A stretch of DNA of 15,351 nt from a virus (Duplodnaviria > Heunggongvirae > Uroviricota > Caudoviricetes). Every line of letters starts with the position of its first letter. The stretch's first letter is position 1. Made by a program: the position numbers. Below are positions 3,001-6,000 of this stretch, piece by piece. The stretch lies in IMG/VR virus record IMGVR_UViG_2713896791_000011; one strand, given 5' to 3'.

Positions 3001-6000
3001 CCCACCCAGGCCATAAAGGCGTTTTCCACCTTCGTGATACTACCGGAAACCGTTTCTGGCATGGCGGCATATTCATCACGCAATACCCCCAGCTGGCTGA
3101 TTAACGCAGGAACGACTTTATCCGCCGTCAGTTGACCATCGTCCGCCATCGCCTTCAGATCTTTACGGGCCACGCCCATGCCTGCAGCCAGTGCACGAAT
3201 GATCCGGTCACCACTTTCATTGACCGAATTAAATTCCTCACCGCGCAACACACCCTGTGCCAGCGCCTGGCTGAACTGGGTGATCACCGAACCCGCCTCA
3301 GCCGTACTGGCACCGGAGATTTTCAGCCCCGTGGAAATGGCCTCCGTCACCTTCAGCACATCATCAGCACTGTAACCATATTCACGCATCGAGGCAGCCG
3401 AACGGGCAAACAGGGCCGCATTATCCGAAAAAGCGGTACCTGTCCGCTGGCTGATATCCATCAGCACTTTCTGTGATGACGAAAATTCATCAGATGACTG
3501 CGACGCCTGTTTCAGACGGGCATTCACGGAACTCCACTCATCAGCCAGTGAAATCAGGTGTCCGGTGGCAAAGGCACCGGCAAATGCGCCAGCCATTCCG
3601 ACAGCAGAACCGCGAATTTCCGTCAACTGGCTGTTCAGTTCTGCCAGGGCACGTCGCTGCTCCCGGGCTGCCGCAGCGGCCTGACGCCCGCCATTCTGCA
3701 GGGTCCGGTAATATTCACTGCCCATACGGGAAGCACGCTGGAGCTCCGACTGGAATGACTGTGAATTTGCCGAAATTTTGATAATCAGTTCACGTAACGT
3801 CGCCATTCACCTTTCTCCGGGCAAAAAAACCTGCCACAGCAGGTTTTCATCATTATTTATGACATTGCTGCAAAGCTCAGCGCGTCTTCCAGCGCCGCAA
3901 ACGGATCTGACTCCACTTTATCCTCATCCTCGCCCCAGCAGAGCATGGCGTCCTCCAGTGAAACATTCATCCCCTGCGCCCCGAAAACCGCTTTCACGAT
4001 CTGCGCATTACGGATATCCCCGCGCTCATCGCCCAGCGGGGACACCCTGTCGAACTCCATCCACATCATCGCCTCGCTCGCACTCAGACTGTGGCCCAGT
4101 TCGGATAAGGTGCGCCCCAGACGGAGCGCAAGTCGCATCAGAAAGAGAATTTCCGGGCGGGCTACTTTTTTCTGGCCGACTCTGCATCAGCGATCAGTTC
4201 CAGTGCCTGACGCAGCAACCGGGCATGTACCGGACCATAGACGGCCAGCACCTGCTCACGGTCGTCCGGAGTGAACACCCGCTGCAGATCCGTATCAAAC
4301 AGGACATCGCAGAACAGCGTCACATCCGCTTCCAGGTTACGGCGGGTTTTCGCCACCACCGACAGGGTATCGTCATCCTCTCCATCACCATTGAGCACTT
4401 CCTGCCACAGATACCAGGCCTCTGCCGAAGGCTCCCGCAGCACCACGCTGACATTACCCCATTCCGGCACCTTCACCGTTTTATGACGAAACCCTGACAG
4501 TCTGGCCAGCGCCAGCGTTTTCAGATCCTTTTTCATGATGACCCATCCCCTTATCCGGCGGCTGCGCTCACTGTCACGGTGCATTCAACAGACGTCACAC
4601 TCTGTGCTTTCTCTGCCGAATCGGTCACCACGCAGGTATATTTCCCCGCATCAGCGGACTGCGCACCTGGCTTACTGAAGGTGTCTGTCGTCTGCCCGTC
4701 AACCGGCTGACCATCCTTCTTCCAGGCGTATTTATACGGCGGCGTTCCCCCGTTGGCACTGACTGACATTGTCAGCAGCGCACCTGTATTCACGGTAAGT
4801 GTTTTATCCAGATTTTTCACAAACGCCAGCGGTACCACAAAGGACACCGGTTTGCCTTTCATACGCAGTGAAAACGTTGCTGCCACCACGCCGTTGGTAC
4901 CGGATGACCAGGTGTGCTGACGCACTTCCGCCAGGAACTTAAAGCCCTTACCGGACGGAAACAGCACCTTAAACGCATACAACGCGTCATTGTCATAGGC
5001 ATCACGCAGGGCGTTCTGGGCCTGATTCAGATAAAAATTACCCGACATGGAAATCTCAGACGACGCCCCCAGACCGTTGATGTTCTCCTGCTCGGTGGAG
5101 CAGAGCGTGGTCACATCAATATCCTGTTTCTGACCGGCGGTGAACTGGACTTCCTTGATGGTGCAGTCCAGGCGCAGATATTCCGCCTTATCCATAGTTT
5201 CAGCAGTCGCCGGGGCAGATGAAATCATCACCTGCGTCAGCTGTGAGCGTTCATACAAAGCAGACATTCTGCCTCCTGATAATAAAAAACCCGCACGCGG
5301 CGGGGTATGGGTTTTGTAGAAAAAAAGAAAAAGTCACACCGTGACCTGAAACTCCAGGGTTGCACGGTAACAGCGGTTTTCCGGAATATAGTCCTGCATT
5401 TCACTGACGGATCCCGGGGCCAGCAGCATTATGGCTTCACGGGCGTCCTGACGTATCTGACGCGCCTGCGTCACAGTCCCGGCATAAACGTCTATCTGCA
5501 CCGACACTGAGGACTCCGCCTGCCCGCCCATCACGTCCGCAGACACCGATGAAATCAGGCTGAAAACCACCCACGGAAGCGCCACCGACGGCCTGCCATC
5601 CAGCAGGGGGACCACATACGGGTACACCTGCCCGCCGGCAAGATGCGCCAGATGAGGATACAAATCCGCCTCCGTCATCGTCTCAGTACCTCATCAATGG
5701 CCCGGTTCATCCGTGCAATCGCCACTTGCGCTGCCTGTTCACTGCGCACATCAAACGCCGGACGCACAAACGGGTGCGGTGGCATATTCACGGTCCCCAT
5801 TTCCACAAACCGCCAGTAGAAAGCATTGCGCGGGTTATCCGCCTTCATGGTGTTATCGCTGTTACCGGTGTCCGGATTAACACCCCGGATATGCACACCG
5901 GATTCCATCCCGCCATCGCGGGAGCGCCGGGAAAGGACCACCACATTGCGGCGCAGTTTTCCCCTGCGTACCGGTGCCCGTGACACCACTTCTTCTTTCA

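Follow-up and report, generated by a model that had tools for sequence, protein, structure and literature searches.

In the genome of phage HK97 (AF069529), a 'putative terminator' is annotated at 6692-6719, between gene 11 and gene 12, the latter being the gene of the major tail subunit; this position is orthologous to that of the junction analysed here. In phage HK542 (JQ086373), a 'rho-independent terminator' is annotated at the same junction, which follows the tail-terminator-like gene and precedes the major tail gene. The late operon of HK97 carries six further putative terminators annotated in the same direction, and hairpins flank its capsid and major tail genes on both sides. An HK97 moron, a gene inserted together with a promoter and a terminator of its own, ends after gene 15 with a terminator (8397-8416) composed of a hairpin and a U-run located right before the Shine-Dalgarno (SD) sequence of the tape measure gene. 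Moron terminators keep the transcription of a lysogen-expressed gene from continuing into the late genes (PMC3594210).

Terminators are also known from the late regions of other temperate phages. In the P22-like phage L, a predicted rho-independent terminator ends the procapsid module inside an antitermination-dependent late operon with a single promoter, and the late operons of temperate phages commonly contain internal terminators, the roles of which are described as not known (PMC8022706). The intrinsic terminator tR' is read through by Q-modified polymerase and keeps the late genes off in the lysogen (PMC7547250, PMC6606751); in lambda and Stx phages it is the primary switch, situated within ~260 nt of PR', and its terminated product is a functional small RNA, StxS. 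In lambda, genes U and V form the same functional junction (tail terminator protein and major tail protein) in a Q-antiterminated late operon, but only 7 nt lie between them, with no hairpin, and genes T and H overlap. The terminator-like hairpins of the lambda late region are few and are located near the D/E junction, after E, after J and after lom. The terminator device characterizes the HK97-type module rather than lambdoid phages as a whole; since lambda uses Q but has no terminator between U and V, late operons of the Q type can do without it. A search of the literature for terminators mapped upstream of major tail genes yielded nothing relevant.

The window, i.e., the whole stretch of 15,351 nucleotides that was analysed (IMG/VR record IMGVR_UViG_2713896791_000011), represents the HK97-like late module of an E. 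coli lambdoid/Stx-type prophage, and its close relatives are Stx-converting lambdoid phages, 95-99% identical to it. The element upstream of its major tail gene is orthologous to the annotated HK97 terminator, and by position and flanking homologues it belongs to the junction terminators between genes 11 and 12 of the HK97 family. The tail-junction terminator is a known kind of element, already annotated in HK97, and its purpose alone is at issue.

Anatomy of the major tail junction

The junction is composed of the following features, listed in the direction of transcription.

5334-5678, minus strand: gene of the tail terminator (tail completion) protein, 114 aa, HK97 gp11-like (PHROG 347, annotation of phage 2851)
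5347-5331, minus strand: second, weak hairpin upstream, the U-run of which falls within the spacer
5305-5333, minus strand: spacer of 29 nt without G, from the tail-terminator stop codon to the hairpin, poorly conserved in sequence
5290-5304, minus strand (the coding strand): terminator hairpin of five G-C pairs
5304-5300, minus strand: 5' arm of the hairpin, CCCGC
5299-5295, minus strand: loop of 5 nt, CGCGU
5294-5290, minus strand: 3' arm of the hairpin, GCGGG
5289-5284, minus strand: U-tract of six U, abutting the stem
5283-5278, minus strand: AUUAUC following the U-tract
5277-5272, minus strand: SD sequence AGGAGG, 4 nt (CAGA) before the ATG
5267-5265, minus strand: ATG of the major tail protein gene
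4551-5267, minus strand: gene of the major tail protein (238 aa, Ig-like domain at the C-terminus), matching PHROG 158 'major tail protein' with E=1.7e-116

An earlier note had described a terminator-like hairpin and a strong SD upstream of the major tail gene, and both were confirmed on the minus strand: CCCGC-CGCGU-GCGGG at 5304-5290 is followed by a U-run, AGGAGG and the ATG, and the energy of the SD:anti-SD duplex is -10.3 kcal/mol. The sequence between hairpin and SD is six U followed by AUUAUC, and not 'UUUUUAUU' as given there. All sequence hallmarks of an intrinsic terminator, namely, a stem, a short loop and a U-tract, are present on the transcribed strand; nine U are found within the 12 nt directly 3' of the stem, and the end of the hairpin is 22 nt away from the AUG. 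Folded alone, the hairpin has an energy of -7.5 kcal/mol, which is weak for a terminator.

The thermodynamic prediction for the whole junction does not indicate unusual stability (folding z = -0.97), and no stable competing structure of the attenuator or riboswitch type was found in the fold of the junction. The SD and the AUG of the tail gene are predicted to be partly paired with codons 2-4, the probability that the SD is unpaired being 0.26. When the entire window was compared with Rfam using a permissive threshold, the sole match was a sub-threshold chance one elsewhere, and a scan for sigma-70-like sites found no promoter-like sequence upstream on the minus strand near the gap between the two genes. 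The upstream hairpin at 5347-5331 was considered as part of a tandem terminator and rejected: it is not conserved and is lost in WGPS6, F349 and Stx2_14744.

The tail-terminator and major tail genes are separated by 66 nt, with no annotated gene in this gap. The genes upstream of the major tail gene are translationally coupled via ATGA overlaps, while the tail gene itself starts after this gap. In the window, no hairpin was found after the tail gene, where the gap is 14 nt, and the hairpin after the capsid gene is devoid of a U-run. The SDs before the terS, Ad1, head-closure and gp10-like genes have predicted strengths equal to or higher than those at the three terminator junctions of the window (described below); SD strength was rejected as a discriminator for abundant proteins, as several low-copy genes have equally strong SDs.

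In HK97, the hairpin, U-run, SD and ATG follow each other as in the window, and the start codon is 20 nt away from the hairpin against 22 nt here; the N-terminal 142 aa of the tail protein are 81% identical to HK97 gp12. The two elements have a common stem core, CCCGC(C)...(G)GCGGG, and both are scored by a covariance model that was trained solely on major-tail junctions from 12 lineages. The HK97 stem is stronger (9 bp and -15.5 kcal/mol versus 5 bp and -7.5 kcal/mol), its loop is different, its U-run is interrupted (UUUUCUUUUU), and a second terminator, absent from the window, directly follows the HK97 tail gene. According to the sequence records, the HK97 tail-junction element is a predicted one, like the copy in the window.

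The element differs from the other described terminators in its setting. Phage L is a different type of phage, with other genes flanking its terminator and another position of the latter; the paper on this phage (PMC8022706) raises the same two hypotheses as are considered here; it includes neither a comparative nor a covariation analysis, and the close packing of the terminator against the following gene's ribosome binding site is not remarked upon. Unlike tR', the element of the window is located many kb downstream, between structural genes, and could act at most as a secondary barrier. Its 66-nt gap has neither the extra gene nor the promoter-like site of a moron, and moron identity of the tail junction was rejected on finding no annotated gene and no nearby promoter-like site on the minus strand.

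Sister elements, conservation and covariation

The same architecture had been proposed by the earlier note for the junctions before the capsid and tape measure genes, and it was recovered at both of them.

11318-11301, minus strand: first sister element, GAACCGC-UGCG-GCGGUUU, -10.2 kcal/mol, followed by the U-run UUUUAUUUUC
11290-11285 and 11279, minus strand: SD AGGAGG and start codon GTG of the protease-capsid gene, which follows terL after a 63-nt gap
3847-3826, minus strand: second sister element, AAAACCUGC-UGUG-GCAGGUUUU, -10.7 kcal/mol, followed by the U-run UUUGCCC
3806, minus strand: start codon ATG of the tape measure gene, preceded by the SD GGAG, after a 50-nt gap following the G/T chaperone genes

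A strict scan of the window for perfect stems of at least 5 bp with at least four GC pairs, a loop of 3-6 nt and a tail starting with UUUU and containing at least six U in 8 nt detected exactly three sites, namely, those before the capsid, major tail and tape measure genes, all of them intergenic and on the coding strand. No strict sites were found on the other strand, and the expectation from 300 dinucleotide-preserving shuffles was 0.01 per strand on average. Of the four intergenic gaps exceeding 40 nt, three contain these sites, which mark the boundaries between the modules of packaging, head and connector, tail tube and chaperones, and tape measure and tip. A permissive scan gave 12 terminator-like sites in the window against 14.6 expected, i.e., no overall excess.

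The covariance model also matches the capsid junction of the window (46.1 bits, E ~3e-10) and its tape-measure junction (20.9 bits, E ~0.004). In HK97, the model finds the annotated terminators before the tape measure gene (E ~2.5e-4), which is the moron terminator after gene 15, and before gene I (E ~0.004), while the terminators before J and before the protease gene reach only E 0.45-0.74. Among relatives, the first sister element shows loop variants and one variant of a stem position (GAACCGC to GGACCGC); compared with phage 2851, the second differs by one extra base per arm, with pairing kept (CCGC/GCGG against CCUGC/GCAGG).

Major-tail homologues were sampled from E. coli, Salmonella, Klebsiella, Morganella, Cronobacter, Phytobacter and Burkholderia (13 in total, with amino acid identity down to ~35%), and a hairpin with a U-run was found 18-25 nt before the tail start codon in 12 of them. 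The stems differ in sequence, being represented by CCCGC, GAACCCGCC, AGACCGC, AAGCUGC and AUGGCCCGC, and a U-rich run abuts the stem in every one of the 12 hairpin-bearing lineages. In all relatives, the stop codon is separated from the hairpin by a spacer of 15-29 nt with 0-4 G. The copy in the window is the weakest of those sampled, with 5 bp and -7.5 kcal/mol versus -9.5 to -18.1 kcal/mol in the others. Compensatory double changes were found in three of the six consensus pairs across the 12 lineages. Paired cells account for 91.7% of the alignment versus 80.2% in shuffles, none of the 500 shuffles reaching the observed value, and for 26-51% when the partners are slid. The stem is intact in 113 of 117 copies, which were collected via the coding start of the tail gene and not via the hairpin. 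Comparison of the homologues demonstrates selection on the predicted RNA structure, not on the sequence, at the tail junction.

The other late-operon terminators found in HK97, phage 2851 and Evi have their hairpins 15-22 nt from the start codon, and unrelated phages share the tail TTTTTTATT(A/T)TCAGGAG at junctions before their tail sheath, tail fibre and capsid-type genes. A mosaic boundary or recombination 'linker' at this place was considered because a distant BLAST match starts exactly at the hairpin, and was rejected because the upstream gene is also homologous there; as the spacer alone is unalignable, this pattern argues for differential constraint and not for a module boundary.

Proposed conditional termination and alternative explanations

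The best explanation, to which we assign a probability of about 0.6, is an intrinsic terminator inside an HK97-like late operon, packed against the ribosome binding site of the tail gene and normally read through by Q-modified polymerase. Unmodified RNA polymerase would form the GC hairpin, pause at the six U and release the RNA ~7-9 nt past the stem, i.e., before the SD, so that the tail gene would not be expressed. During lytic growth, polymerase carrying Q from the late promoter would ignore all three terminators and transcribe the 20-kb operon. The terminators would then be conditional barriers silencing the late structural genes against leaky transcription that is not antiterminated, for example, in the lysogen, and such a barrier would cost the lytic programme nothing. 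In the read-through mRNA, the hairpin would still form 22 nt before the AUG, leaving the U-rich leader and AGGAGG for uncoupled initiation of translation.

Stx phages express their late genes from PR' by means of Q antitermination (PMC7547250), and polymerase is made resistant to terminators by Q (PMC6606751). By analogy with the Stx-converting relatives and with this literature, the operon of the window is presumably transcribed in the Q-dependent manner, the genes for Q and the promoter PR' being located outside the window. We infer that the element does terminate transcription, is read through under Q and has an insulating role. Constant adjacency of the U-run to the stem favours a terminator, since termination needs it and a plain stabilizing hairpin does not, and the G-poor spacer of 15-29 nt that separates the stop codon from the hairpin gives the latter space to fold away from the terminating ribosome. 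The termination efficiency of the copy in the window may be modest, judging from its hairpin, the weakest sampled.

A post-transcriptional module, which is possible but doubtful, would use the hairpin to block 3' exonucleases or to mark a processing point and to insulate the ribosome binding site, with the U-rich tract as a standby or protein S1 site; the outcome would be high uncoupled translation of the major tail protein from read-through late mRNA. Such a role would fit the hairpin-to-start distance, which, in contrast to the variable upstream spacer, stays within 18-25 nt in 12 lineages and is similar at the other late terminators of HK97, phage 2851 and Evi, as well as the tail recurring before sheath, fibre and capsid-type genes. 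It also agrees with the tail gene's position after a 66-nt gap downstream of ATGA-coupled genes, with the partly paired SD, where a standby site would help, and with the hairpins on both sides of the HK97 capsid and major tail genes. However, it does not need the stem-abutting U-run present in 12 of 12 lineages; a 3' hairpin at this place would stabilize the upstream low-copy connector genes and not the tail gene, after which the window has no hairpin in the 14-nt gap, and the folding evidence is purely thermodynamic, the junction itself having z = -0.97. Partial attenuation, the idea of the earlier note, in which a fixed fraction of polymerase is stopped even in lytic growth and a stepwise fall of mRNA tunes protein ratios, appears improbable. 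The location of the elements at functional module boundaries and the weak 5-bp stem, which suits a leaky terminator, agree with it, and a step down before the tape measure gene, whose product is present in few copies per virion, would be sensible. Capsid and major tail proteins, however, are needed in hundreds of copies. Their genes are located downstream of terminators, after the low-copy terminase and tail-terminator genes, and, as termination lowers downstream expression, attenuation would have the opposite of the needed effect at two of the three sites; the claim that the device sets structural-protein stoichiometry is not upheld, since these two elements directly precede the genes of the most abundant virion proteins. 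Strong SDs are present at other genes as well, and antitermination of the Q type makes polymerase resistant to terminators (PMC6606751).

Alternatively, the element could form, by termination or after processing, the 3' end of a short Hfq-binding RNA that the prophage would produce in the lysogen, comparable to StxS or HnrS of EHEC prophages; we regard this as very unlikely. A hairpin with a U-tail is the usual Hfq-binding 3' module. EHEC prophages make Hfq-binding small RNAs ending at intrinsic terminators, one of which, HnrS, is 66 nt long and encoded 'within the late genes' (PMC13502914), and StxS ends at tR' (PMC7547250). Against such an RNA are the results of the promoter scan, with no sigma-70-like site upstream on the minus strand, and of the Rfam search, with no match, and also the spacer upstream, which is not conserved in sequence, unlike the body of a small RNA. 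A chance palindrome, for which the lack of excess in the permissive scan (12 against 14.6) could be cited, or an inverted repeat bound by a protein at the DNA level is effectively refuted by covariation and strand asymmetry: the strict scan gave three sites, each of them on the coding strand, where 0.01 was expected per strand, pairing is kept while the sequence changes, which is the opposite of a sequence-specific protein site, and the U-run is present on one strand only.

Returning to conditional termination, an insulator has no need of a fixed distance of 18-25 nt to the start codon, and this distance hints at a translation-linked constraint. As a tentative extension, the hairpin, U-tract and SD could form one dual-purpose module, acting as a stop for unmodified polymerase and, in the antiterminated mRNA, as a standby and insulation platform and perhaps a decay barrier. 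Such a module would provide strong uncoupled translation of abundant virion proteins, and the features under selection would be the fixed 18-25 nt, the G-poor spacer of 15-29 nt and the near-identical tail UUUUUUAUU(A/U)UCAGGAG, which occurs in unrelated phages upstream of the genes for capsid, tail tube, sheath and fibre; together, these features would mark a portable cassette for late-gene expression.

The analysis adds comparative support to a known and under-studied feature, and current understanding is left unchanged. If the terminators silence the late genes against stray transcription, they would take part in prophage quiescence and make virion production strictly Q-dependent; if an influence on translation or mRNA decay is added to this, they would represent compact natural elements for controlling expression. 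In annotation, terminator sites of this kind can reliably be recognized by their structure, strand and position. The junction is carried by 1245 of 5426 complete E. coli genomes (approximately a quarter), Shiga-toxin phages included, with up to eight copies in each.

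Anatomy and genomic setting of the junction

All long ORFs of the window are located on the minus strand, and its DNA is 95-99% identical to that of Stx-converting and related E. coli lambdoid phages (phage 2851, YYZ-2008, BP-4795). The minus-strand order, with gene names taken via the annotation of phage 2851, is terS, terL, protease-capsid fusion, portal, Ad1 adaptor, head closure, gp10-like, tail terminator, major tail protein, G and T chaperones, tape measure and M. Neither the protease-capsid gene (645 aa in phage 2851) nor the portal gene (859 aa) forms a single ORF; each is broken into several, namely, 11279-10248, 10136-9342, 9130-7766, 7769-7341 and 7368-6802. 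Two 50-N runs (7396-7445 and 13991-14040) and single N's at 9792 and 9855 point to a draft or masked sequence; together with the split genes, they indicate either draft-quality sequence or a decaying prophage. The following features are discussed below:

5678-5334, minus strand: gene of the tail terminator protein, upstream neighbour (PHROG 347)
5304-5300 paired with 5294-5290, minus strand: hairpin stem
5289-5284, minus strand: U6 run
5277-5272, minus strand: Shine-Dalgarno sequence (SD) AGGAGG
ATG at 5267, minus strand: gene of the major tail protein, 238 aa (PHROG 158, E=1.7e-116)
11318-11301, minus strand: sister element before the protease-capsid gene
3847-3826, minus strand: sister element before the tape measure gene

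The minus strand reads ...ACAAAACCCAUAC-CCCGC-CGCGU-GCGGG-UUUUUUAUUAUC-AGGAGG-CAGA-AUG, and the hairpin folded alone has an energy of -7.5 kcal/mol. The hairpin and SD described in the earlier note are thus accurate on this strand, with the count of U residues corrected to six. A weak second hairpin, GGUCAC-GGU-GUGACU with a U-run (5331-5347, minus strand), overlaps the stop codon of the tail terminator gene and mimics tandem terminators; in WGPS6, F349 and Stx2_14744 it is abolished by a deletion of 8 nt and a change from TGA to TAA. An 8-bp hairpin is also predicted at 5249-5277 (minus strand), pairing the SD and AUG region of the major tail gene with codons 2-4 (GAGGCAGA / UCUGCUUU) and placing the AUG in its loop. 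By thermodynamic prediction only, the probability that this SD is unpaired is 0.26, and predicted accessibility is likewise low, 0.19-0.53, in enterobacterial relatives.

A permissive terminator scan of the window gave no excess (12 sites vs 14.6 expected), so a strict definition was applied: a stem without mismatches of 5 bp or more, 4 or more of them GC pairs, a 3-6 nt loop, and a tail starting with TTTT and having 6 or more T in 8. Precisely three sites satisfied it, before the capsid, major tail and tape measure genes. They all lie on the coding strand, the opposite strand giving none, while 300 dinucleotide-preserving shuffles gave a mean of 0.01 sites per strand. Only four intergenic gaps in the window exceed 40 nt; three hold the terminator elements, and the fourth is the capsid-portal gap. 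The latter, 211 nt in the phage 2851 annotation, contains a small unannotated 73-aa ORF (9076-9297, minus strand) matching PHROG 829 of unknown function (E=3.7e-39), preceded by a strong hairpin, GGGAGGC-GUGC-GCCUCCC (about 9322-9305, minus strand), which lacks a U-run and so differs in kind from the three terminators.

Conservation before the major tail gene

Stem, U-run and SD do not vary among close relatives, unlike the spacer on the 5' side of the hairpin. The full stem is kept in 113 of 117 IMG/VR copies, gathered independently of the hairpin via the first 20 coding bases of the tail gene, and 1245 of the 5426 complete E. coli genomes carry the junction.

A distant sample of 13 lineages was assembled from tail-protein homologues found by tblastn and one Phytobacter genome. 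A GC hairpin with an abutting U-run, 18-25 nt 5' of the start codon, was found in 12 of them: the window, HK97, Evi/phi467, Phytobacter, Salmonella SP-016, Klebsiella Kp4884-3 (to which Klebsiella phage 1 LV-2017 is identical, representing the same lineage), Morganella IME1369_02, HK542, Fraca, Cronobacter ENT39118, Burkholderia phi1026b and Bcep176. Such a hairpin is absent only from Pseudomonas phage PARCL1pr (29.5% identity). The stem sequences vary (CCCGC, GAACCCGCC, GAACCCGGC, GACCGCC, AAGCUGC, AGACCGC, GCUCGC, AUGGCCCGC). RNAalifold gave six consensus pairs, three of which show compensatory double changes. Of the cells, 91.7% are paired; column shuffles give 80.2%, none of the 500 attaining the real value, and sliding the partners gives 26-51%. 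The upstream stop codon lies 15-29 nt from the hairpin, and the intervening spacer is G-poor and unconserved in sequence. Since pairing is preserved while stem sequences vary, what is under selection is an RNA (or single-strand) hairpin, abutted by a U-run and held at a fixed distance from the start codon, rather than a DNA sequence motif.

Recurrence at other junctions

The earlier note proposed the same architecture before the capsid and tape measure genes. Both elements are present, with the strict scan and a covariance model in agreement.

Matches of the covariance model, trained on the 12 tail-junction sequences alone (E-values are rough)
Window, capsid junction (outside the training set): 46.1 bits, E about 3e-10
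Window, tape-measure junction: 20.9 bits, E about 0.004
HK97, before the tape measure gene: E about 2.5e-4
HK97, before gene I: E about 0.004
HK97, before gene J: E about 0.45
HK97, before the protease gene: E about 0.74
Phage 2851, before the K-type peptidase gene: E about 0.02

All these matches are on the coding strand, each ending at a start codon. When HK97, phage 2851 and Evi were scanned directly, the distance from hairpin to start was 15-22 nt, counting only coding-strand hairpins with a detected downstream SD and start codon. Owing to an A-run before its stem, the tape-measure element gets a weak score on the opposite strand too. Its hairpin is CCUGC/GCAGG in the window vs CCGC/GCGG in phage 2851 (8408-8458), that is, one added base per arm (U and A) with pairing preserved, although the two are about 97% identical overall; the hairpins of Evi and HK97 differ again. 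This element turns over even among near-identical genomes. At the capsid junction, a minimal ATG-TGA 'ORF' (cugAUGUGAcu; 11278-11283, minus strand) lies directly past the SD and overlaps GTG 11279, the start codon of the capsid reading frame.

The 3' half of the module, GCGG(G/U)UUUUUUAUU(A/U)UCAGGAG, was found in at least 120 viral contigs before at least eight unrelated N-termini. The genes identified behind it are those of two tail-tube lineages, a protease-capsid fusion, a tail sheath and two tail fibres, as well as a 499-aa protein of the unnamed PHROG 13692. Among IMG/VR loci L008-L127 (e.g. L020, L022, L038 and L083), the sheath gene (Mu-type), the two fibre genes and the PHROG 13692 gene that follow a GC hairpin with the tail UUUUUUAUU(A/U)UCAGGAG belong to phages unrelated to the one in the window. 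The recurring tail represents either convergence on an optimum or a small cassette moving between junctions.

Putative role and known systems

The element is real and conserved. Records of the HK97 family annotate its orthologue, and the literature already discusses the class to which it belongs. The GenBank record of HK97 contains a 'putative terminator' (6692-6719) between genes 11 and 12, the orthologous site, and six further same-direction putative terminators in the late operon; a 'rho-independent terminator' is annotated at the same junction in HK542. The remaining interest lies in the unsettled role of intra-operon terminators, for which partial termination, or a stop of spurious transcription without antitermination, has been suggested (PMC8022706). 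HnrS, a 66-nt Hfq-binding sRNA of EHEC prophages, is reported to be encoded among late genes (PMC13502914).

Anatomy, strand, statistics, covariation and orthology support well the assignment of the element as a probable intrinsic terminator on the late transcript. Q-modified polymerase transcribes the late genes of Stx and other lambdoid phages from PR' (PMC7547250), and Q makes the polymerase terminator-resistant (PMC6606751). We favour a conditional barrier: unmodified polymerase would halt before the SD and Q-modified polymerase would pass, so that the late genes would be silent unless Q is made. The main rival, or a second function, is a translational or stability role of the junction. 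The fixed distance from hairpin to start codon, the shared U-rich-to-SD tail and the partial pairing predicted between the SD and codons 2-4 are unexplained by the barrier model and sustain this rival. The U-run always abuts the stem and the hairpin clears the stop codon, which argues for an effect on polymerase rather than a mere stability hairpin. The role in structural-protein stoichiometry suggested in the earlier note fails on direction, because two of the three terminators precede the genes of the most abundant proteins and follow those of low-copy ones. Several low-copy genes also have a strong SD.

In phage lambda the U|V junction comprises only 7 nt and has no terminator. A few terminator-like hairpins occur elsewhere in the lambda late region (following E, J and lom), and the D|E junction gives a weak covariance-model score. 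Terminator-like hairpins were also observed within coding sequences: GGCAUGGUGGUUACCGUGCC followed by UUUUUG (350-369, minus strand), a strong one in the M-like minor tail gene of the window (571-230), is identical in phage 2851, and a good one, GAACCCGCC-UAUGCG-CGGGUUU with a U-rich tail, is located in lambda gene C (4484-4505, plus strand).
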